Of a stretch of 64,000 bases of DNA, positions 46,609-55,449 are shown in pieces. The stretch's first letter is position 1, and every line of letters begins with the position of its first letter. The translations under genes were made by a program, and so were the position numbers. The notes under the pieces were generated by a model. That model worked only from the letters and a program-made list of their open reading frames with translations, ran no database searches and was not told the DNA's origin. Origin of the DNA: Verrucomicrobiota bacterium (GTDB taxonomy: Bacteria > Verrucomicrobiota > Verrucomicrobiia > Limisphaerales > UBA8199); contig JBDHQH010000002.1 in assembly GCA_039806935.1 (NCBI GenBank), positions 33,872-97,871 on the forward strand, written 5' to 3'.

Positions 46609-48813
46609 TCAAGGGGAACGGAACGCGAAAGTCCAGCCGTGGCTGTCCTGGCCGGCGAGCGACGATCCATCTACCGCCAGCGTGAGAGTGTCCCGCCCCC
46701 CCTTGAACCAGGGTTCAATCGCGGTGCGCGCGACTCCGTACGTGTTCGGCCGGATATCGAAAACCAAGCTGATCACACCCGCTTCAGGATAAATTTTTCC
46801 GGCGAGTTGGCGGTAGAGCGTCGGGGCGGCGGCGGACTCCAGCCGGGCCTCGAGCGTGTTTGCGCCGGACTCGACCTTCAGCAAGAGCAGGCGCAGTTGA
46901 CTGCGCTGGGACCGAGCGGCGTCCACGGCATCCCCGGAGGCCACCACTCCAGCCCGGAGCAGCGATTGCAACACCTGCTGGCGCATCGCGCCCATTTGGC
47001 GACGTCTCGTGGTCTCTTCAAGGGAAAGAGGCTCGAAACGAAATGTTTGTCCGCGGTAATCACCCATCAGCGTGTCATTTTCCATGTGCAAGGCCAGCGA
47101 CGAAAGTCTCGGCAGGAAGGCTTTCGGAGGAATGCCGGGTGGAACAGAGTCGCGGATCTGCGTCAGGCGGAGGGGCCAGTGGGCCTCGCGATAGCGGTTG
47201 CCGATTAAGGGACCGGCCAATTGGAACTGCCAGGCAGGATGTGAGGGATCCTCGAGCACCGCCTGGACAGGCGATCCCGCATCGGGGACGCCTCCAAACC
47301 GCAACAGTATTTGTTCGCTCCCGGTCGCGCTGGTTTTCACCACTCCCGAGTAGATAGCCGCCGGTTGCAGCGCATCCAACATGGCAAAATAATCAGGGCT
47401 GGCGGCGCGTTTGACGTGTTCGGTTTCCTCGTCCGGCACCCGGGACCACTCGCTGGCCGTCCCCGCGAGACTGCCGATCAACCGTTCCCCTTTCACGGCA
47501 AGCAAAAGATGGATCATCTGCGGGTTGTCCAGCACCGGACCTCCCGAGCGAATTACTTGATCAGAAAGCGAAGTGAGCGCCACCTGAAAGCCCTCGGTGG
47601 CGGAATCGTATTTCCATTCCCCCTCGAATAACCGGCCATCTCCCCAGCCGCCGTCGTTGTGAAACATCGCTTTCAGAGTATGTATGTCAGAGTTGGCGGA
47701 GGATTCGATTATTTCCAGATACACCGGACGGCTCTCCTTGCGCACGGCCACGGTGCTGGTGAAGATCGCGCCCGGGCGGAAAAAGCCGGTAAGCGCCTGC
47801 TCTTCGCTCCGGTGGCCGGCCATCGCTTCCGCGAGGAGCTTTTGGCGCGCCTCTTGAAGTTTCGCCAGCGTCCCGGTTTGCTCGCCCGCGAGGGCGCGCA
47901 ATCGCGCGAGATCTTCAGGGCGTCCGACGTCAAAGGCTTCACCTTCGAGTTGTCCGCGAGGGCGCTGGTCCTGAGGAAAGGCCCCGATCGAGAGATTATC
48001 CAAGCTCACCTGCCAGGAACCACCCCGCCTCACGGCGCGAAGCCCTGCCGAACCGTCAAAGGCCTTGCCGGGGGGCGTGGCTAGCTTGACGAGCGCGATG
48101 CGCGTCAAATCCGGTGGGCGAACCGAAAAGCCGGCGATTTGCAGCAGCCGCGGCCCTTCTTTGGCGCTGAGCAGCTCAGTGATTTGCCGGTTTGCGCCCA
48201 GATCCATTTTCATTTCCTCCTCGAGATACCGGGCAGCGGGAAGCGGAGCGTACAAGGGCTGAATCAACGTGGCGGTGAAGGTGGCAGAGATGCCGGCTAC
48301 ACCCCGATACTGCGGGCCGGCTCGAAAAGAAAGCGATTTCAACGCGAGTCCTCGCTGGGCAAGCGCCGGGGCCAGAGCATTCTCAAGGGCAGAGCGAGGG
48401 AGGGCGGGAGGACGCCGTTGCCAGTGGATGTATGCGGGGATCGCGAGGATCGCCGCCGCGACCACCGCCACCGTTGCCCAGCGGATTACTCGCTGGCGAG
48501 CGGCGGCGGTTTCGGCGGCTTGCTTTTCGTCGCGCAGCCGCTCGAGTCGTGCGCGGAGTTGCGCTCCCTGTTGTTCTCGGAGGCGAAGGTGAGCCAGGGT
48601 CTTTCGTTCCTCGGCCAGCCGGTTTAACGCCCATTGGCAGCGCTGGGCTGCCGGTCGTGAAGCCACCTCGGGCGGCAAGGGAGCCGGGTTGGCGATGGAT
48701 TCGCCGACGCCGGAGTGTCCGAGATGGGCTTCGAGTTCCCGGCGCGCGGTGGTGGCCGCGGTCCACTTGGAGAGGCATGCCCGAAAGAGGATGGGTTCAA
48801 AATCTTTTCCCAT
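46609..48813 (-). CDS. Single-pass membrane protein (734 aa), last gene of the FtsK/WXG-like operon
   Basis: The cytoplasmic N-terminus has a coiled-coil-like stretch (LRLREQQGAQLRARLERLRDEKQAAE). One TM segment, WATVAVVAAAILAIPAYIHW, is encoded at 48421-48480, followed by a C-terminal domain of about 600 aa. No family recognised. Confidence 0.8.
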   Translation of the reverse strand: MGKDFEPILFRACLSKWTAATTARRELEAHLGHSGVGESIANPAPLPPEVASRPAAQRCQWALNRLAEERKTLAHLRLREQQGAQLRARLERLRDEKQAAETAAARQRVIRWATVAVVAAAILAIPAYIHWQRRPPALPRSALENALAPALAQRGLALKSLSFRAGPQYRGVAGISATFTATLIQPLYAPLPAARYLEEEMKMDLGANRQITELLSAKEGPRLLQIAGFSVRPPDLTRIALVKLATPPGKAFDGSAGLRAVRRGGSWQVSLDNLSIGAFPQDQRPRGQLEGEAFDVGRPEDLARLRALAGEQTGTLAKLQEARQKLLAEAMAGHRSEEQALTGFFRPGAIFTSTVAVRKESRPVYLEIIESSANSDIHTLKAMFHNDGGWGDGRLFEGEWKYDSATEGFQVALTSLSDQVIRSGGPVLDNPQMIHLLLAVKGERLIGSLAGTASEWSRVPDEETEHVKRAASPDYFAMLDALQPAAIYSGVVKTSATGSEQILLRFGGVPDAGSPVQAVLEDPSHPAWQFQLAGPLIGNRYREAHWPLRLTQIRDSVPPGIPPKAFLPRLSSLALHMENDTLMGDYRGQTFRFEPLSLEETTRRRQMGAMRQQVLQSLLRAGVVASGDAVDAARSQRSQLRLLLLKVESGANTLEARLESAAAPTLYRQLAGKIYPEAGVISLVFDIRPNTYGVARTAIEPWFKGGRDTLTLAVDGSSLAGQDSHGWTFAFRSP

Positions 48814-48829
48814 AAACGAAATTGTGGTG

Positions 48830-49237
48830 TCAGTCGCTTCCGGCGGCGGTCGCCTGGGCGATCAGGCCTCTCACGCCCGCGGCTAGATGATCGGTTTGAT
48901 CCGCCTGGGCCAAGGCGGTTGACGCTTCGCGGAGCGCGGCCTGGGCGCTCTGGTCGGACGCGGCGGCATTCCGCGCGGCTTCGGCGGATTCAGCGGCGCA
49001 CTGGCGGTGCTTCTCTTCCGCAAGCAGGCCTGCCTGCGCCGCCGATGCCAATTCGCGGTGCTGGGCTGCCACGGCGGCCAGGACCGTGGATTCCGCCGCG
49101 GCTCGAGGCTGAAGAAATTTTTGTTCCGCGGCGCGCGCGTTGGCGTCCCGCCAGAGGATCCGGGCCTCGGCCAGGACGTCCGCCAGCGAGCGGGCTTGCC
49201 GCTCGAGCGCCCAAAGCAGATCTTCCCGTTCACTCAT
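48830..49237 (-). CDS. Ala-rich helical protein (135 aa) with a W-R-D motif
   Basis: ATGA overlap with the upstream gene. ILWRDANARAAEQKF at residues 27-41. Composition predicts an all-helical protein. Confidence 0.7.
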   Translation of the reverse strand: MSEREDLLWALERQARSLADVLAEARILWRDANARAAEQKFLQPRAAAESTVLAAVAAQHRELASAAQAGLLAEEKHRQCAAESAEAARNAAASDQSAQAALREASTALAQADQTDHLAAGVRGLIAQATAAGSD

Positions 49238-50187
49238 GGCAAAACCCCCGGGCGGTTGAGTTCTTGCAAGGCTTCGATGGCGCGATCGATTTCTCCGCGT
49301 CCGGTGTCTTCGTAAATGGTGATTTCCGAAGCTGAATGTTCAGCCAGCCGGAGCTGGGCGGCCGCGTCTCTGATGCGGATGCCCGCAAGCTGAGCGGCTC
49401 CCGTTAGTTCCTCACTCGCGGAGTGTTCGCGATTCACTGCCGCGCGGGCCTCGTTGGATGCCTGTCGCGCCGCCGCGGCCAGGCGCAGTGCGCCATGCGC
49501 GGCGCTCACGGCGGCATGGCCGGACGCCACTGCGCGAGTGGCGGCCCCCAGCGCCGCTTCGGCATGTTCCACCGCGTGGGAACAGGCGGCCACTCGAGAC
49601 TCGGCGCGGCTGACTTCCCGTCGCGCGGTCTCGACTTGTCCTCGAGCCGCAGTCACGGCGCGTTCGGCGCTGGCCAGGGCGGCATACAGACTCGAGCAGT
49701 CACGCGCCGGGCCGTTCGGGTCGCGTGGCGCGGAGGCGCACGCGCGATACGCGCTGGCGGCGGCGGCGCAACGCCGTTCACATTCCGCAAGCACGCTCAG
49801 GGCAGCGGCCAAATCGCGCCGCGCGGTTTCGAGCCTCTCGCGGGCCTTTGCCAGATTGCCTCGCCAGAGCGCCACGGCCGCGTGGGCCTCCCGCAAGGCT
49901 GCTTGCGCATTGGCCAGTGCCTGGCCGCCACGCTCCTGGCTTCGCCGCGCGGAGGCTTCAGCCTGGCCGGCGAGATGCTCCGCTTCCCGGACGCGCCGTT
50001 CGTCTTCTCGCGCAGCCTCCGTCGCCAGAGCGGCCAGGCCCTGGACTCGGCGGGCGTGCTCCTCGGAGTGCCATTGCTCGCGGGCAGTGTCCTCCATTCC
50101 TGAACGCAGCACGGAACCACTGCGCCGAAGCTCGTAAGCCACGGATTCCAAAGCGTTGATTAAGGCGGTGGGATTATGCTGGGTCAT
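49234..50187 (-). CDS. Ala-rich long helical-hairpin protein (317 aa) with a canonical W-x-G motif
   Basis: 4-nt overlaps at both ends. ALWRGNLAKA (W108-R-G110, encoded at 49858-49866). Central Cys/Pro turn ECERRCAAAASAYRACASAPRDPNGPARDC. Confidence 0.75.
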   Translation of the reverse strand: MTQHNPTALINALESVAYELRRSGSVLRSGMEDTAREQWHSEEHARRVQGLAALATEAAREDERRVREAEHLAGQAEASARRSQERGGQALANAQAALREAHAAVALWRGNLAKARERLETARRDLAAALSVLAECERRCAAAASAYRACASAPRDPNGPARDCSSLYAALASAERAVTAARGQVETARREVSRAESRVAACSHAVEHAEAALGAATRAVASGHAAVSAAHGALRLAAAARQASNEARAAVNREHSASEELTGAAQLAGIRIRDAAAQLRLAEHSASEITIYEDTGRGEIDRAIEALQELNRPGVLP

Positions 50188-50477
50188 GGCAAGTCCGGAT
50201 GGGTGCGATTAGCCTCCCGTAAAGCGTCGAGGCGTTGACCAAGCAATGGGCGCAGACGCTCGATGGCGCCGAGGTAATCCTCGAACAGGCGCTCGGTGCG
50301 GAGCCACCCGGCGCGGAACTGTTCCGCCGCCTCGCCCTCGTAAACCTCGGAAAGCGCCCGCCAGGAGCTTTGTAGTGGCGGCAATTCCGATCGCAAAAGG
50401 CCAGTCTGCCGGGTGAGAGCCGCCTGATAATCCTCCAACGCCGCCGCCAGATATTTCAGATTTTCGGCCGTGCTCAT
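50184..50477 (-). CDS. WXG100-like small helical hairpin protein (97 aa, Y-E-G variant)
   Basis: The length and the central motif EVYEGEAAEQFRAGW (residues 44-58) mirror the ESAT-6-type pattern W-x-G-x4-A-[YF]. It immediately follows a second small helical protein. Confidence 0.7.
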   Translation of the reverse strand: MSTAENLKYLAAALEDYQAALTRQTGLLRSELPPLQSSWRALSEVYEGEAAEQFRAGWLRTERLFEDYLGAIERLRPLLGQRLDALREANRTHPDLP

Positions 50478-50480
50478 GAT

Positions 50481-50753
50481 TTAGGAACCAAGGAGATACC
50501 GGCGCAGGGCGGCGGATTTTTCGCGCAGAAAAAGTTCGAACGCGGGCGCTTCGCGCGCGCGGTACCGTTCCAACTGCTGGGCGAGTGGCTGATAAAGAGC
50601 GTCATAATCGCGCCGGAAAGAATCCTTCCAAAGCGGCGCCAGCCGGTCATGCGCCGACGCCAGTTCGCGGGCGGCGATGCTGAGCCGCTCGTGAAAGGCG
50701 CGTAAATCCCGGTGGAAACGCTCGAGGCGGGCCAATTGATCGTCCATGCTCAT
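50481..50753 (-). CDS. WXG100-like small helical hairpin protein (90 aa, W-K-D variant)
   Basis: Central motif PLWKDSFRRDY (W42). Its start overlaps the ATPase stop by 4 nt. It is predicted all-helical. Confidence 0.65.
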   Translation of the reverse strand: MSMDDQLARLERFHRDLRAFHERLSIAARELASAHDRLAPLWKDSFRRDYDALYQPLAQQLERYRAREAPAFELFLREKSAALRRYLLGS

Positions 50754-53700
50754 GTGGAGTGGGCGGACCGGCGGGCGAGGATTTGCGCGAGCGCCGGCAA
50801 CTCGGCCAGCGCGCCGTGGTTCGAGTCATCGCCACTTTCCAGTCGCGCGGCTACCGGCGGTTTGAAACGGACCAGACTCCCGGTATCCGCGTTGAAAATG
50901 AGAGCGCAGATGGGAAGATCGCCATCCGCTTGCAAGGTGGCCGCCACACGTTTGCCGGTCAGATCACCGGATTCGTCCTCGGGCATTTGCAAAAGCAGAC
51001 GGTGGTCAAAATGGGAGACACCTTTGCGCAGGTCAATGAGCGCGCAGAGCGCCCGGCCGCTTCCAGTGCTCAGAATCACATGAATGCCGAGCGCCGGCCC
51101 CTCGGTAAACAACCGGCGGAGCCTTGCGCCGGCGGGCGATTCGATGGGGGTTCCGTAAGGATCCGGTTGGCGCGCCAGGCTCTCGAATCGTTCGGGCTCC
51201 AGCAGGACAACAAAGAGACTGGGGCAGGCGCCGCGAGCCAGGTCGTCGAGGCCTTTCCGAGTGTCGAGTTCCGTCTCCAACTCCCGCAACACGGCTTCGA
51301 CCTCGCCGGGGTCGGTTACCACCCGACAAGCAGAGCGTGTGCTCCTCGCGACGTGTTCGTTCCAGGCGGGGGCCACCCGCGCCCAGGGCGAGCCGCGCGG
51401 TGTGCGATCCAGCAAAACAAAACGATTGAACCGTCCCTCGAGGTTCAGCGCGAAGCTGGTTAGCACACTCAGCAATAACCCGTGCCGGGCATTCGCGTGG
51501 TTGCCAACGATCAGGAGATTGTCGTGTCGTTTGCGCTTCAGTCTCAGGTCGGCATACCCGCGCACGTTAAATTCCTGGCCGACCCAGGCGATGCGCGGAT
51601 GCTCGGCCGGGTACCATTCAGCAGCGCCCACGCCGCCCTCCGCGAGGGGGCGTTTCACCCAATGCTCGAGCTCTTCTGGTTGGGGCGCGGAGGGGAGCGC
51701 TGCCAAGGCTGCCAGCCGCGGATTATCCAGCAGCTTGGGCTGGGCCAGACCCTCGAAAACCAGCGGCGCGCGCAATTGGGGAAATCGCACGGCGGCGTGC
51801 GCGGCGAGCCCCTCGACCAGGTGTTCGCGCTCGGTCGCTCGGAGCAGCGCGATGATCCCTGAGACATTGAAGCCGTCTTGTCCGCTGCGATCGTTGAGCA
51901 CCACCTTGCCGGGGCCGTCCAGGGCATTGATGGCCTCTTTGCCAGCGCGCTGGAACTCGGTCAAGGTGGCCACTTCCGCCTGGGCAATTTTCATCGCGAC
52001 ACGCAGCGCAATCTGGCTGAAGATCTCGTCCCGGCGCAGCATGCCGCTGGCTCCGAAGCGCTGGGAAGCCAGCAGCATGTGCAGGCCGGCGCTGCGCCCC
52101 TGGGCGCCCAGCAGCGCCAGATATTTCGAGGCTTCTCCCTCCCGATCGCCTTCGAACAACTCCTGATATTCATCGACCACCAGCACCAATCGGGGCAGGG
52201 GAGGCAAATCCGGCTGAGCTTGCCGCAGCCGCGCGTAATCCTTGAAGCCGGACACCTGATATTTGCGGAAGATCCCGTTGCGCCGCTCCATTTCCTGCGC
52301 CAGATCCGCCAGCAAGCTGCGAGCGAGTTGCGGCGAGGTGTTCAAGGATAACACCTCCGAGTGCGGCAGCCGGCGGTAGGTTCGGAACTCGACTCCATCC
52401 TTGCCGTCCACGAGATAGAATTTCAACTGCTCGGGCGAATAGCGCTGCGCGAGTCCGAGGATGAACACATGGAAGAGATTCGATTTCCCCATGCCGGTGC
52501 CGGCGCCAATCACCCCATGCACACAGGGCTGACCATCCTCGCTTTCCCCAAGCAGAATGCGCAGGGCGTCCTGCTCGCTGCCGCGGGCGCCGACGGGCGT
52601 AACCACCCGTTCCACGGACGACTCCCGCCACCACGCCTCCTCCGGCAGGCCCACCAACCCGGTGAAAGAGAGTTCGGAGCGAATCGCTTCGGCCTGGCTC
52701 AACTTGGTGAGCAAGGCTGATTGCAAAGCCGCCGCCGGGGGCGCATCAAGGGCCAGCCGCCAACCCGCGCCCGCTAATTCCTCGGCCTTGGCCAGCGGGT
52801 ACCAGGCGTGAGGAAAGGCCTTGATGCCGGATTGATCCATGTCGAATCCGCGCGGGAATTCCGCTGTCGTGTCCCAATGGAGCACCAAGTAGGTGCCGCC
52901 CTCCATGCCATTGTTGGCGATGCGGCGCAACAACTCGAGGCTGCGGCTGTCCATTTCAAATCCGCGTGGAAAATCCGCCACCACAACCAATTGCAGCTTT
53001 TCGCGACGCCGTTGGTTGGTTGGAATCTGCTCAAACGAACGGACCGAACCTCCCAAATGGTTGCGAGCCACCCGCACAAAGTTTCGCTCGGCGGATTCCA
53101 GGTCCTGAAAGAGGTCGGTGTTCTCGATGCGGCCCGGCAGGCGATTGGCCCAGCGGAAGGAGTTGCCGCTGTTGTGGGGATCAAGAAAAAGAAATCGCAC
53201 CTGATTGGGTAACGCCAGGGCGATCCGCCAAATCAGGGATTGAATGGCGTCGAGCACCGGCTGGCGGCGGGCGGGCTCGCTGGCCAACACCAGGGTCCGT
53301 TGCTGCCCGACAAATGGCGCCAGGAAGGGGGATGCCGGCCCTGAACCTTGCGCGGCCTGAATTTGGCCGAGGCATAGTGAATCGGGCAAATCGGTGACTC
53401 TCTGTTGCTCGGCCGGGTTGTAGCCGGCCCAGACGGATTCGTTCCAGCCAGGCCGCAAAAGCGGCGGCACGCGGCTCCAGGCGACCCCGCATTCCTTGTC
53501 AGCCGCCTCGGAAACGGCGGCGAATTCTTTCATCGCCCCGCGCCCCTCAAGCAGCGCCCGGGCCGCCAAGACGGGCAGGAGTCGTTCCGTTGCTGATTTT
53601 AGAGCCGCAGTTTCGCCGGCCAAAGCGTCCATTTCAGCCAGCCAGGGCTCGATGCCCCGAGCCTTGCCGCGGGAGCACCGCGCCTCGAGCTCGGTGATGG

Positions 53701-53776
53701 CCGACGGCTCGCCCGCGCAGGCTCGCTCGGCTAACGCTCTCGTCTGGCTTTGTCCCGCTGTGGAAGAATCACCCAT
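50750..53776 (-). CDS. FtsK/SpoIIIE-family ATPase with three P-loop-type modules (EssC/EccC-like architecture), no TM segment
   Basis: Middle module: Walker A GAGTGMGKS (52481-52507), Walker B LVLVVDEYQ, and GRSAGLHMLLASQR (FtsK RAAGIH..ATQRP-like). The flanking modules repeat the fold pattern with degenerate P-loops: LASEPARRQPV...LQLVVVADFPRG, and VGNHANARHG...LFVVLLEPERF...ALGIHVILSTG. ATG 53776 is preferred; the track ORF opens at TTG 53914. Confidence 0.85.
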   Translation of the reverse strand: MGDSSTAGQSQTRALAERACAGEPSAITELEARCSRGKARGIEPWLAEMDALAGETAALKSATERLLPVLAARALLEGRGAMKEFAAVSEAADKECGVAWSRVPPLLRPGWNESVWAGYNPAEQQRVTDLPDSLCLGQIQAAQGSGPASPFLAPFVGQQRTLVLASEPARRQPVLDAIQSLIWRIALALPNQVRFLFLDPHNSGNSFRWANRLPGRIENTDLFQDLESAERNFVRVARNHLGGSVRSFEQIPTNQRRREKLQLVVVADFPRGFEMDSRSLELLRRIANNGMEGGTYLVLHWDTTAEFPRGFDMDQSGIKAFPHAWYPLAKAEELAGAGWRLALDAPPAAALQSALLTKLSQAEAIRSELSFTGLVGLPEEAWWRESSVERVVTPVGARGSEQDALRILLGESEDGQPCVHGVIGAGTGMGKSNLFHVFILGLAQRYSPEQLKFYLVDGKDGVEFRTYRRLPHSEVLSLNTSPQLARSLLADLAQEMERRNGIFRKYQVSGFKDYARLRQAQPDLPPLPRLVLVVDEYQELFEGDREGEASKYLALLGAQGRSAGLHMLLASQRFGASGMLRRDEIFSQIALRVAMKIAQAEVATLTEFQRAGKEAINALDGPGKVVLNDRSGQDGFNVSGIIALLRATEREHLVEGLAAHAAVRFPQLRAPLVFEGLAQPKLLDNPRLAALAALPSAPQPEELEHWVKRPLAEGGVGAAEWYPAEHPRIAWVGQEFNVRGYADLRLKRKRHDNLLIVGNHANARHGLLLSVLTSFALNLEGRFNRFVLLDRTPRGSPWARVAPAWNEHVARSTRSACRVVTDPGEVEAVLRELETELDTRKGLDDLARGACPSLFVVLLEPERFESLARQPDPYGTPIESPAGARLRRLFTEGPALGIHVILSTGSGRALCALIDLRKGVSHFDHRLLLQMPEDESGDLTGKRVAATLQADGDLPICALIFNADTGSLVRFKPPVAARLESGDDSNHGALAELPALAQILARRSAHST

Positions 53777-54360
53777 AAATACAATAGTTCGCCGCTCGAA
53801 GTCCGGTTTGCTGATCGCCCGAGTCGGTCCGCGGGGGTGTGAGCCAGCACCGGGAAACAAAACTGCGCCATCAGTTACGCGCAATACTCTTATACTGGAT
53901 TCTGATCCAGTCAACGGAAGAATGGCGTGACTGGGGCGCCGGCGGGCGCCGCAAACGCTCCGGCGTTGCGTATCGCCGATCTCTGCGATGGCCGGGGGTC
54001 CCGCACCGCCACCGCGCGGGTCAGGCTGAATGAAAACAGGGCTCTGTAGCAGCCGAAGAAAGCAATGCCAACCCCAAGGGGTTCGGGGGAAAGGGAACGG
54101 GGGAGACTGCGATGGGTTGTGCGCCCCACCGAGAAAAACGGAATGTCGAGGGTCAGTTCGAGTTCCCAGCAGGTTCGGATTTTTCCCCCGCCAGCGGAGC
54201 CAATTTGCTTTAAATCCGATTCCAAGGTGTTACTCTGCGTCCTGGGCGGAAGGCGCGGAAGGCGGTTTGTTTCAAAATTGGCTTGAGCTTCCGGGTCTCC
54301 CGCCTTAGATGATCGTGGCAAGCCGCATTCCGCGGCCACGCCCAACGACTGCCCTGAATC

Positions 54361-55449
54361 ATGACTGTTCAAAGCCTGTTTACGACCCCGTCCGCCGGCG
54401 CGCTCGACCTGTTGTCGCTGGGAGCCCTAGTGCATCGGCTGGATCCCGGAGTGATCCCGTTTCGCAAAGCCGCCGCGTGCGAGATCCACGTCAGCGGCGG
54501 TGAGTTTAATGTGGCTGCGAACCTGGCGGACTGTTTTCGGCTGCGCACAGGGATCGTCAGCGCGATGGTGGATTATCCGTTGGGCGACCTGATCGCCGAG
54601 CGGGTGCGAGCCATGGGGGTGCGGCCTTTTTACAAGCACTTTCAGCACGATGGAGTGCGCGGACCCAACATGGCGGCAGTTTACAGCGACCGCGGGCAGG
54701 GCGTACGCGCTCCAGTAGTGTTTTACAACCGGTGCGACGAGGCCGCGGCGCGGTTGAAGCCCGGAGATTTCGATTGGAAGGGAATTTTTAGCGAGGGCGT
54801 CCGGTGGTTCCATAGCGGAGGCATCTTTGCCGCGCTTTCGCCGACGACCGCCGAGTTGATCATCGAAGCCATGCAGGCGGCTCGGCAAGCGGGCGCGGTG
54901 GTTTCCTTCGATTTAAACTACCGGGCCAAGCTTTGGAACAGCTCAGGCGGCCATGAGCGGGCGGTTGCCATCCTCGATCGCATCGTCAGGCAGGTGGATG
55001 TGCTGGTGGGGAACGAGGAGGATTTGCAAATGGGCCTGGGGATTCCGGGGCCTGAGGTGGCGGCCAAATCGAAGCTGGATCCGAGCGCGTTTCTGGCCAT
55101 GATCGGCCAGGTGACCCGGAAGCACCCGCATTTGAAGGTGCTGGCCACTACCCTGCGGGAAGTGCATTCCACCAATCGGCATAGTTGGAGCGCCGTGGCC
55201 TGGATCTGCGGCCGCACCCACGTGGCGCCCACCTGCGAATTGGACGTTCTGGACCGCGTGGGCGGCGGGGATGGATTTGCCTCGGGTTTGTTTTACGGTT
55301 TGTTGCAGGGGTTGCCGGAGGAGGAAGCGGTCAAGCTGGGCTGGGCGCATGGCGCGCTGCTGACCACTTTCCCGGGGGATACCACGATGGCGACGCTGGA
55401 GCAGGTCGCGGCGTTTGCCCAAGGCGGTTCCGCGCGGATTCAACGGTAA
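54361..55449 (+). CDS. PfkB-family sugar kinase (2-dehydro-3-deoxygluconokinase-like)
   Basis: GGEFNVAANLA near the N-terminus, and the C-terminal GGGDGFASGLFYGLL anion-hole motif. Confidence 0.8.
   Translation: MTVQSLFTTPSAGALDLLSLGALVHRLDPGVIPFRKAAACEIHVSGGEFNVAANLADCFRLRTGIVSAMVDYPLGDLIAERVRAMGVRPFYKHFQHDGVRGPNMAAVYSDRGQGVRAPVVFYNRCDEAAARLKPGDFDWKGIFSEGVRWFHSGGIFAALSPTTAELIIEAMQAARQAGAVVSFDLNYRAKLWNSSGGHERAVAILDRIVRQVDVLVGNEEDLQMGLGIPGPEVAAKSKLDPSAFLAMIGQVTRKHPHLKVLATTLREVHSTNRHSWSAVAWICGRTHVAPTCELDVLDRVGGGDGFASGLFYGLLQGLPEEEAVKLGWAHGALLTTFPGDTTMATLEQVAAFAQGGSARIQR

Follow-up and report, generated by a model that had tools for sequence, protein, structure and literature searches.

What does a motor resembling those of type VII secretion systems (T7SS) do when it is encoded beside WXG100-like proteins in a Verrucomicrobiota genome? 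The question is raised by six genes on the minus strand of contig JBDHQH010000002.1 (Verrucomicrobiota bacterium, assembly GCA_039806935.1), of which a stretch of 64,000 nucleotides, here called the window, was analyzed; positions count from its first letter. From the sequence alone, the original prediction had read these genes, which encode an FtsK/SpoIIIE-type ATPase, proteins of 90, 97, 317 and 135 amino acids (aa) and a 734-aa membrane protein, as a candidate T7SS/WXG100-like module in a probable diderm genome of Planctomycetes–Verrucomicrobia–Chlamydiae (PVC) type. The locus has homology to the T7SS motor and to a WXG100 pair; its ATPase is soluble, with three modules and a single predicted active one in the middle; and its five-gene core, accompanied by a variable slot for membrane proteins, is mobile. 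With a probability of roughly 0.55, what lies here is a free-standing copy of a T7SS-related cassette that is rare and moves horizontally; its export mechanism we infer.

An EccC/EssC-like ATPase and two WXG100-fold proteins

The ATPase matches PF01580 (FtsK_SpoIIIE) at an E-value of 1e-29, as one Pfam domain covering aa 465-621 of its long open reading frame (ORF), and no FHA domain was found in it with Pfam. Among the NCBIfam models, EccCa (TIGR03924) ranks first (2.6e-38, 132 bits), followed by EssC (1e-27), EccCb (6e-21) and FtsK (3.5e-6, 25 bits); the EssC model matches the ATPase domain only, with 96 bits against a cut-off of 778. The PADLOC models SspH and mad8 also match this domain. 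Domain D1 of T. curvata EccC (PDB 4NH0) is the best sequence match of known structure, and the AlphaFold model of the ATPase (pLDDT 78, pTM 0.62) aligns in Foldseek with the three-domain EccC cytoplasmic structure of the same entry over 984 columns (E 1.5e-32). The D2-D3 parts of EccC and EssC come next (1e-21 to 7e-24), whereas the FtsK motor (2e-15) and TcpA (7e-13) match one module each. The ATPase is nearest to the T7SS motors EccC and EssC rather than to FtsK, in keeping with the T7SS reading of the original prediction.

An alignment of 12 members of the ATPase family contains three conserved modules. In the middle module, GxxGxGKS and hhhhDE are invariant, and G428, G430, K431, S432, D535 and E536 do not vary in the family. 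The C module carries the family motifs IVGxxNxARYG and EP[DE], and its Walker A in the window protein is degenerate (VGNHANARHG). The N module is without Walker A; its family motifs are LDPxxxGxxF and VVADFP, represented in the window by FLDPHNSGNSF and, at the Walker B position, VVVADFP. In hhalign comparisons, the C module is clearly related to the middle one (97.2%, E 4.4e-11) and aligns weakly, though in register, with the N module (42%, E 2.7e-4), and the N module scores 7% against the middle one. The AlphaFold model shows three alpha/beta modules, the N module included, with the same order of strands and helices. These alignments and the model predict three FtsK-type modules with Walker A and B intact in the middle one alone, which upholds the three P-loop-type modules proposed originally and refines them to a soluble protein with one intact site. 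The modelled N-terminus consists of helices 6-20 and 24-35 and a long, 59-residue helix 43-101; this predicted coiled coil would sit where EssC has its FHA and transmembrane (TM) region. A Kyte-Doolittle scan found no hydrophobic segment in the ATPase or in the four smaller proteins.

The next two genes encode small proteins in which a hairpin is recognizable. The 97-aa protein matches PF06013 over nearly the whole profile (positions 2-84 of 86, E 2.4e-5) at 25.0 bits, below the Pfam gathering cut-off of 27.3 bits, and TIGR03930 at 4.6e-4; PF06013 is also matched by 26 of 31 members of its family (E<=0.01, best 1.2e-9). Throughout the 31-orthologue alignment, the central Y-E-G-x-A-A-x-Q-F is invariant. 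It corresponds to the WXG100 turn with Tyr replacing Trp, and the G, A and F of WxGxAAxxF are invariant. When searched against the PDB, the family profile retrieved H. pylori HP0062 (8e-5), EsxB (3e-4) and ESAT-6-like structures. The 90-aa protein has no Pfam match; its family keeps W42 and D44 invariant (W-x-D), and its profile matches HP0062 in the PDB at 4e-5, with the WRD of HP0062 aligned with W-x-D, and also S. aureus EsxA. Its AlphaFold model (pLDDT 94.1) has a helix at 3-41, a turn at 42-44 and a helix at 45-88, so that WKD falls exactly at the modelled turn. The top Foldseek matches of this model are CFP-10 (TM 0.82), T. curvata EsxA/B, B. anthracis EsxB, HP0062 and S. aureus EsxA; so short a hairpin fold yields weak E-values, but the list is almost purely WXG100. 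The two families are paralogous (hhalign 89%, E 2e-6, full length). Both proteins are thus assigned to the WXG100 superfamily as hairpins, the 97-aa protein by profile match and the 90-aa protein by profile and predicted structure. They form two adjacent solo WXG100-fold genes, one near-canonical (97 aa, YEG) and one without WxG (90 aa, WKD); a literal WxG stands in neither. The WXG100-like hairpin fold or profile match expected of the small proteins was accordingly found for both. A profile search with the 90-aa family, intended to trace a connection with the HP0062 cluster of H. pylori, retrieved unnamed members of the family and nothing else.

The 317-aa and 135-aa proteins are helical as well, and no Pfam model covers either family. 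A [W/Y]-x-[G/D] motif had been noticed in all four small and mid-sized proteins, and it is literally present in each (WKD, YEG, WRG and WRD). As a family-conserved turn it is confined to the 90-aa (W-x-D), 97-aa (Y-E-G) and 135-aa (W-x-D) families, the 317-aa family keeping the Trp alone, and the demonstrable WXG100 proteins are the two described above. The ~320-aa family, to which the 317-aa protein belongs, is all-helical, with a near-invariant W108 and conserved Cys columns at C150, C164 and C202 (window numbering). PDB and Pfam searches with it yielded coiled-coil noise only, and none of 29 members matched LXG. A relation to LXG, EspB or PE/PPE proteins, which the original prediction had suggested checking, was therefore rejected; the N-terminal part is unrelated to WXG families. 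The 135-aa family is acidic (median isoelectric point 4.9) and conserves W-x-D-x-A-A-R-E-x-N-x-R-Y-L-x-P-H. Its PDB matches are coiled coils only, and a PDB profile search detected no similarity to HU-binding DNA mimics. Despite its W-x-D-x-A-A, a place as a third WXG100 paralogue was rejected as unproven (hhalign 1% and 20%). The protein is possibly an adaptor, a chaperone or an inhibitor.

One and the same C-terminal tail, E-R-I-x-x-L-x-x-[FLA]-[ND]-R-P-x-x-L, is found in the 97-aa and ~320-aa families. The 97-aa protein of the window ends in RLDALREANRTHPDLP and the 317-aa protein in AIEALQELNRPGVLP. A loose form of the motif occurs in 18 of 31 members of the 97-aa family and in 15 of 29 members of the ~320-aa family, compared with 5.5% of 2989 background ORFs, an approximately 10-fold enrichment. 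The C-termini of the two families also align at profile level (hhalign 84.5%, E 7e-6), and in long variants of the ~320-aa protein the core ends with this motif, directly before an added GNAT or other C-terminal domain. The shared tail may be a recognition signal or a processing site. It was also noted in loci L012, L014, L011, L003, L006 and L037.

The last gene of the operon encodes a protein with an N-terminal coiled coil, one TM segment and a C-terminal domain of ~600 aa. As predicted, it is a single-pass protein: the Kyte-Doolittle scan found one hydrophobic segment (aa 109-131). It has no Pfam match, and only four homologues, all from close relatives, were found among 5.8 billion proteins. 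The 734-aa protein is lineage-specific and lies outside the conserved core. What is conserved is its operon position, a slot for varying membrane proteins. In 30 loci, the slot is filled by a ~130-aa tail-anchored protein (coiled coil, ‘TPPxE’, C-terminal TM helix), whose gene sits directly after the 135-aa gene or directly upstream of the ATPase gene. A TM2-domain protein occupies it in L064, and an unrelated 742-aa protein, likewise with coiled coil, TM segment and large domain, in L065; the 734-aa and 742-aa proteins share no significant similarity. Homology between the N-terminus of the 734-aa protein and the small tail-anchored family was unsupported (1.7 bits in a hidden Markov model (HMM) search), though the layout of coiled coil and TM segment is alike.

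A recurrent and mobile gene cassette

The conservation of the arrangement was followed in a scan of one genome per species, which found 58 related loci from at least 10 phyla. Gene content was established by iterative HMM searches on all ORFs, with 59 unique loci counted; the resulting counts are lower bounds because contig ends cut many loci. At least two small WXG-like genes are present in 46 of these 59 loci, the ~320-aa family in 54 and the ~135-aa family, always after the ~320-aa gene, in 48. The complete five-gene order was found in 39. The gene order is therefore conserved among relatives, and the six-gene arrangement is no chance grouping, since the order recurs in dozens of unrelated genomes. 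With the N module of the ATPase family as query, 373 representatives (E<=1e-3), mostly of 920-1110 aa, were retrieved from 1.84 billion clusters at 50% identity; the family is rare but recurrent.

Related loci were found in Verrucomicrobiota, Acidobacteriota, Chloroflexota, Cyanobacteria, Bacteroidota, Actinomycetota, Planctomycetota, Armatimonadota and the Alpha-, Beta- and Gammaproteobacteria, and a Deinococcus member was found in a separate search. The distribution is patchy and falls mostly in diderm phyla, Verrucomicrobiota among them. The closest relative (L001, 70% identity) lies in a metagenome-assembled genome (MAG) of the Limisphaerales; the window genome is therefore of PVC type, as had been surmised. 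The flanks of this relative (a peptidase S9 gene; holin, rhodanese and NifU genes) are unrelated to those of the window. A phage-type integrase lies beside the cassette in L065, and in Deinococcus the cassette is carried on a 188-kb plasmid with three insertion sequence (IS) transposase genes, where it is annotated as ‘DNA translocase FtsK’ and hypothetical proteins. The cassette is horizontally mobile. No fixed genomic partner emerged: clustering of all flank ORFs gave only antisense shadows of the ATPase gene and the small TM family, and Pfam and PADLOC scans of 120 pooled flank proteins returned a heterogeneous set, housekeeping with a defense-type minority. Homologues of TIR, JAB, HEC-02, Mza, Iet or AriA occur in some flanks. 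A search of a phage collection gave single-domain FtsK matches only and no cassette.

In relatives, the helical proteins are combined with enzymatic domains. At least five loci (L011, L013, L014, L015 and L024) encode a ~320-aa core with a GNAT acetyltransferase domain added at the C-terminus; in other loci the addition consists of 100-300 residues of no assigned fold. Three cyanobacterial cassettes contain an extra gene between the ~320-aa and 135-aa genes, which joins a WXG-like N-terminus to Tox-REase-2 (L014) or to AHH/HNH nuclease domains (L024 and L056; Table 1). These inserted WXG-nuclease genes are classic polymorphic-toxin modules. The window copy has no recognizable enzymatic effector.

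Known systems, a possible mechanism and the alternatives

Earlier publications already mention the cassette type, in brief computational remarks and with no experimental work. In one paper (Zhang et al., 2012; Biol Direct 7:18; PMC3482391), footnote 6 to Table 1 describes cassettes of WXG100 genes and a three-domain YueA-like ATPase as ‘mobile versions of T7SS’, from verrucomicrobia, planctomycetes, cyanobacteria, bacteroidetes and proteobacteria. The window agrees with that description in its three modules with the middle one active, its adjacent WXG genes, its phyletic range and its signs of mobility. Recently, Bell et al. reported an EssC homologue without TM helices in some Type III-A CoCoNuT operons (Bell et al., 2024; eLife 13:RP94800; PMC11090510). 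The homologue carries a coiled coil at its N-terminus and three ATPase domains, of which the central one alone is active, and the next genes encode two WXG100 proteins (one without WxG), a coiled-coil/D-ExK nuclease fusion and a DNA-mimic-like protein. The authors note that the missing TM helices make ‘a different mechanism’ likely, and the paper names a ‘stand-alone secretion system’; the eLife supplement text contains no EssC or WXG100 entries. For the stand-alone type, the published account thus amounts to the footnote of Zhang et al. and to Anantharaman et al. (2012) as cited by Bell et al. Because both publications already contain the cassette type, the novelty of the locus had been overestimated in the original prediction. 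As far as can be verified, the present analysis adds the ~320-aa and ~135-aa families, the membrane slot, the shared tail motif and a catalogue of effector-domain variants; the available text of the two papers describes neither these families, slot and tail nor the GNAT, AHH and Tox-REase-2 variants seen here.

With the variety of Bell et al., the window shares an ATPase with a coiled coil and without TM helices, a WXG100 pair, a coiled-coil protein and a small protein. Two loci of the present set, L040 and L047, carry PP2C and Ser/Thr kinase genes, an ATPase gene whose product is 34% identical to that of the window, two WXG genes and a Replic_Relax gene of restriction endonuclease (REase) fold. 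They represent the variety of Bell et al., and therefore the published and window cassettes belong to one ATPase family. Unlike that variety, the window has no VWA, PP2C, kinase or McrBC-like genes near its cassette; its 317-aa protein is helical only, without an REase-like domain, REase-fold genes being confined to L040 and L047; and it adds the 734-aa membrane protein. Since the 317-aa protein lacks a nuclease domain and the 135-aa protein a detectable similarity to DNA mimics, the window cassette is of the stand-alone variety and not CoCoNuT-linked.

Compared with the canonical systems T7SSa (ESX, Actinomycetota) and T7SSb (Ess/Yuk, Bacillota), the window has a homologous motor of three FtsK domains, with T. 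curvata EccC as its best match, next to a WXG100 hairpin pair, and the C-terminal tails on its helical proteins suggest, by analogy, a substrate recognition like that between EsxB and EccC D3. In contrast to those systems, its ATPase is without TM segments, its active domain is the middle one instead of D1, its hairpin turns are YEG and WxD instead of WxG, LXG domains are missing and its hosts are mostly diderm. EccB, EccD, EccE, MycP, EssA, EssB, EsaA and YukD gave no Pfam or NCBIfam match among the six proteins, in agreement with the original prediction, and none of them recurs in the 10-kb flanks of the 59 loci. The system must differ in mechanism from a canonical T7SS, a possibility named in the original prediction. 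Another point of comparison is HP0062 (PDB 3FX7/2GTS), an ESAT-6-like protein with WRD at its bend and an FtsK/SpoIIIE neighbor (PMC3397514). It is the best match of known structure for the profiles of both small proteins, with a turn of WRD where the 90-aa protein has WKD. The sequence identity is ~19-21%, and HP0062 is a homodimer (PMC3397514), whereas the window encodes two paralogues.

On the reading as a T7SS-related export cassette, the parts could work together as follows. The ATPase would form a hexamer, as FtsK, EccC and EssC do, and would be brought to the inner membrane, in place of TM helices of its own, by contacts between its coiled coil and the one that the single-pass partner has in the cytoplasm. 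A four-helix heterodimer in the manner of EsxA and EsxB would arise from the 90-aa and 97-aa proteins. A degenerate module of the ATPase could recognize this heterodimer and the 317-aa protein by their shared tail, as EccC D3 binds the tail of EsxB; the C module is the candidate receptor, by its likeness to D3. Hydrolysis of ATP in the middle module would then power export across, or insertion into, the cytoplasmic membrane, and in relatives the same route might carry toxin domains (GNAT, AHH and Tox-REase-2). Several points weigh against this reading. The locus encodes no polytopic membrane protein or canonical T7SS membrane part and no outer-membrane component; the ATPase is soluble, so that no translocation channel is evident; and the sequence of the membrane partner is not conserved from locus to locus. 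The same ATPase family is also embedded in defense operons of TerY-P/CoCoNuT type. In L024, the toxin gene lies directly 5' of the 135-aa homologue and no immunity gene of its own would fit in between, which is unusual for secreted interbacterial toxins. Finally, for the hexamer and the heterodimer, as for the recognition of the tail and export, the reasoning is by analogy.

A bolder version of this reading, to be held only tentatively, is that of a self-contained diderm export machine built on a principle unlike that of T7SSa and T7SSb (‘type VIIc’), a five- or six-gene unit moving between phyla. Here an interchangeable single-pass protein would offer, through coiled coils, a docking site to a soluble, EssC-like hexamer that has one active ring. 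The hexamer would push tail-tagged ([ND]-R-P-x-x-L) WXG100 and long-helix bundles, in some hosts with GNAT or nuclease toxins attached, into the inner membrane or through it. The main alternative, less probable than export, dispenses with secretion: the cassette would be an intracellular defense or conflict module whose ATPase senses or remodels an invader cue, or unfolds and releases the helical proteins. These and the WXG proteins, or in relatives their GNAT or nuclease fusions, would act in the interior of the producing cell or, by way of the single-pass partner, on its membrane and lead to abortive infection or dormancy, the acidic 135-aa protein being a silencing inhibitor. Such a role would suit an ATPase without TM segment or channel component, and the family's place within CoCoNuT operons of Type III-A, for which PMC11090510 states that ‘a different mechanism appears likely’. 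It would also suit L040 and L047, where the ATPase gene lies between the PP2C and kinase genes and the Replic_Relax gene, the TIR_2 and DO-GTPase2 genes that precede the L003 cassette, and the defense homologues in some flanks. Nuclease-fused WXG genes run directly into the 135-aa homologue with no separate immunity gene, the patchy, horizontally transferred distribution is typical of defense genes, and the SspH and mad8 models match the ATPase domain. However, EccC/EssC models score far above such defense FtsK-like models (132 versus 83 bits), the neighbors in the window and in several relatives are housekeeping rather than defense genes, and the flanks hold no consistent defense partner. A membrane protein is always co-encoded, and a WXG100 N-terminus joined to AHH or Tox-REase-2 is, by PMC3482391, a known hallmark of exported polymorphic toxins.

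Two more conventional explanations fare worse. It is very improbable that the locus belongs to a canonical but strongly diverged T7SSa or T7SSb with its membrane components at other places in the genome. An EccC/EssC-like ATPase does adjoin a WXG100 pair, and the data are a 64-kb window, so that remote genes are possible; but the ATPase lacks the TM helices and the FHA/DUF N-terminal part that anchor EccC and EssC, no EccB-, EccD-, EccE-, EssA-, EssB-, EsaA- or YukD-like gene recurs around the 59 loci, which represent at least 10 phyla, and the cassette travels as a unit complete in itself. Least probable of all, and for the most part already refuted, is a DNA translocase, either FtsK/SpoIIIE of chromosome segregation or a conjugative protein of TraB/TcpA type, with the small genes as mere passengers. 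The PF01580 domain, the significant Foldseek matches to FtsK and TcpA, the GenBank name of the Deinococcus plasmid homologue and the integrases, IS elements or Replic_Relax genes near some loci would agree with it. FtsK, however, scores far below EccCa, and the single-module alignments to FtsK and TcpA far below that of EccC over three modules; an N-terminal TM domain is absent, as is any match outside the motor domain; catalytic motifs are missing from two of the three modules; and across phyla the inheritance of the WXG100 genes is strictly tied to that of the ATPase gene.

Apart from a few Chloroflexi, the general literature still confines the T7SS to Actinomycetota and Bacillota (PMC3935865; PMC13492133), and a 2026 review presents it as a system of Actinomycetota and Bacillota (PMC13492133). 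The present loci indicate that the motor and the WXG100 pair circulate in stripped-down form in Verrucomicrobiota, Cyanobacteria, Chloroflexota, Bacteroidota, Acidobacteriota, Proteobacteria and Deinococcota. Should export be true, the cassette would show how small a set of parts suffices for a T7SS-like machine, and how WXG100 substrates are dealt with in two-membrane bacteria that lack EccD- or EssB-type channels; should defense be true, it would exemplify the reuse of secretion-system parts for immunity. The family alignments and the shared tail motif offer concrete handles for experiments.

Operon layout, neighborhood and further variants

The six co-directional ORFs reported originally (1054, 90, 97, 317, 135 and 734 aa) were all present on the minus strand over 46609-53914. 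From the ATPase gene to the 734-aa gene, their junctions are a 4-nt overlap, a 3-nt gap, two 4-nt overlaps and a 16-nt gap. Upstream, the reading frame of the ATPase stays open as far as a TTG at 53914 (1054 aa). By comparison with other sequences, the true start is almost certainly the ATG at 53776, because a 100%-identical database protein (P0001, 1008 aa) and all homologues begin there; the protein then has 1008 aa and the six genes span 46609-53776. The cassette, together with its neighbors, also occurs on seven metagenomic contigs. In public databases, such cassettes are annotated as ‘DNA translocase FtsK’ and ‘hypothetical protein’, and four of the six proteins lack a family assignment.

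Table 1. Features of the six-gene operon (window positions; aa numbering of the 1008-aa ATPase) and WXG-nuclease genes of related loci (locus positions).
Feature	Position	Strand	Basis
EssC/EccC-like FtsK-family ATPase, 1008 aa, soluble	50750..53776	-	PF01580, TIGR03924, Foldseek, family alignment
ATPase N-terminal helical/coiled-coil region, aa 1-101 (predicted)	53474..53776	-	AlphaFold model
ATPase N module, aa ~133-343, degenerate P-loop-like alpha/beta	52748..53380	-	AlphaFold model, hhalign, motifs
ATPase middle module, aa ~390-642, sole predicted active ATPase domain	51851..52609	-	PF01580, invariant motifs
Walker A GAGTGMGKS, aa 424-432	52481-52507	-	motif in middle module
Walker B LVLVVDE	52169-52189	-	motif in middle module
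ATPase C module, aa ~728-972, FtsK-type, degenerate Walker A	50861..51595	-	hhalign, AlphaFold model
90-aa WXG100-superfamily hairpin, HP0062-like W-x-D variant	50481..50753	-	profile, AlphaFold, Foldseek
WKD turn of 90-aa protein	50622-50630	-	invariant W42, D44
97-aa WXG100 protein	50184..50477	-	PF06013, TIGR03930, profile vs PDB
YEG turn of 97-aa protein	50334-50342	-	Y-E-G-x-A-A-x-Q-F center
C-terminal tail NRTHPDLP of 97-aa protein	50187-50210	-	tail motif
317-aa all-helical protein, core-only form of ~320-aa family	49234..50187	-	alignment A4, family in 54/59 loci
C-terminal tail NRPGVLP of 317-aa protein	49237-49257	-	tail common to 97-aa protein
135-aa acidic helical protein	48830..49237	-	alignment A5, family in 48/59 loci
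WRD of 135-aa protein	49145-49153	-	conserved W-x-D motif
734-aa single-pass membrane protein	46609..48813	-	single hydrophobic segment
Predicted TM segment of 734-aa protein, aa 109-131	48421-48489	-	hydrophobic segment
WXG-like N-terminus + Tox-REase-2	L014:13257-14003		
WXG-like N-terminus + AHH/HNH nuclease	L024:6797-7663		
WXG-like N-terminus + AHH/HNH nuclease	L056:14701-15378		

Between the ATPase start and a divergent PfkB kinase gene lies an intergenic region of ~585 nt (53777-54360), in which no sigma-70-like promoter was detected. In a consensus scan of the operon, promoter and terminator sites were not more numerous than in shuffled sequence. A 153-aa ORF upstream of the ATPase gene (53911-54372, minus strand) was judged spurious, as it has no homologue among the upstream genes of related loci; the small ORFs upstream of the ATPase in the window (153 aa), L065 (175 aa) and L064 (191 aa) show no mutual similarity. 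Scans for tRNA, tmRNA and Rfam families detected none across the window. The G+C content is 0.68 at 48001-50000, which covers the genes for the 317-aa and 135-aa proteins, versus about 0.61 window-wide, because these helical proteins are rich in Ala and Arg. In the window, the operon is flanked by housekeeping genes and genes for envelope sugars, with PfkB kinase, UDP-sugar dehydrogenase, DegT and sugar transferase on one side, and Gfo/Idh/MocA, a thioredoxin-like protein and UvrD on the other.

Other contexts and forms were observed among the related loci. In the closest relative, a PycTM-domain gene (Pycsar-type effector) stands beside a 405-aa gene ~5 kb upstream of the cassette (L001:3256-5008), with no counterpart in the flanks of the window. 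Directly upstream of the cassette in an Aggregatilineales MAG (L003:1-9910), a TIR_2 gene, a gene for a 1691-aa protein without Pfam match and two DO-GTPase2-type genes are co-directional, a conflict-system-like context. The two small WXG genes are absent from eight loci of Actinomycetota/Acidimicrobiia (L028, L033, L034, L038, L039, L043, L048 and L052), where the ~320-aa and ~135-aa genes come immediately after a longer ATPase ORF (1085-1170 aa); both in L028 and in L039, two copies of the cassette lie within 10 kb. In L053, L055, L056, L058 and L060 (Chloroflexota, Cyanobacteria and Actinomycetota), the ATPase is split into 3-5 ORF fragments, which are either decaying pseudogenes or MAG assembly errors. 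A sister group (L063:8971-13894 and L057:7266-12415) has EssC-like ATPases of ~1300 aa that are 27-28% identical to that of the window and carry TM-like segments at about aa 208-250, like EssC. One of its members is from a Tepidisphaerales (Planctomycetota) MAG, and in L063 the ATPase gene adjoins a solid PF06013 WXG100 gene and genes of 185 and 68 aa. From its sequences, this group looks to be a further T7SS-like arrangement of PVC bacteria, and one closer to the canonical form.

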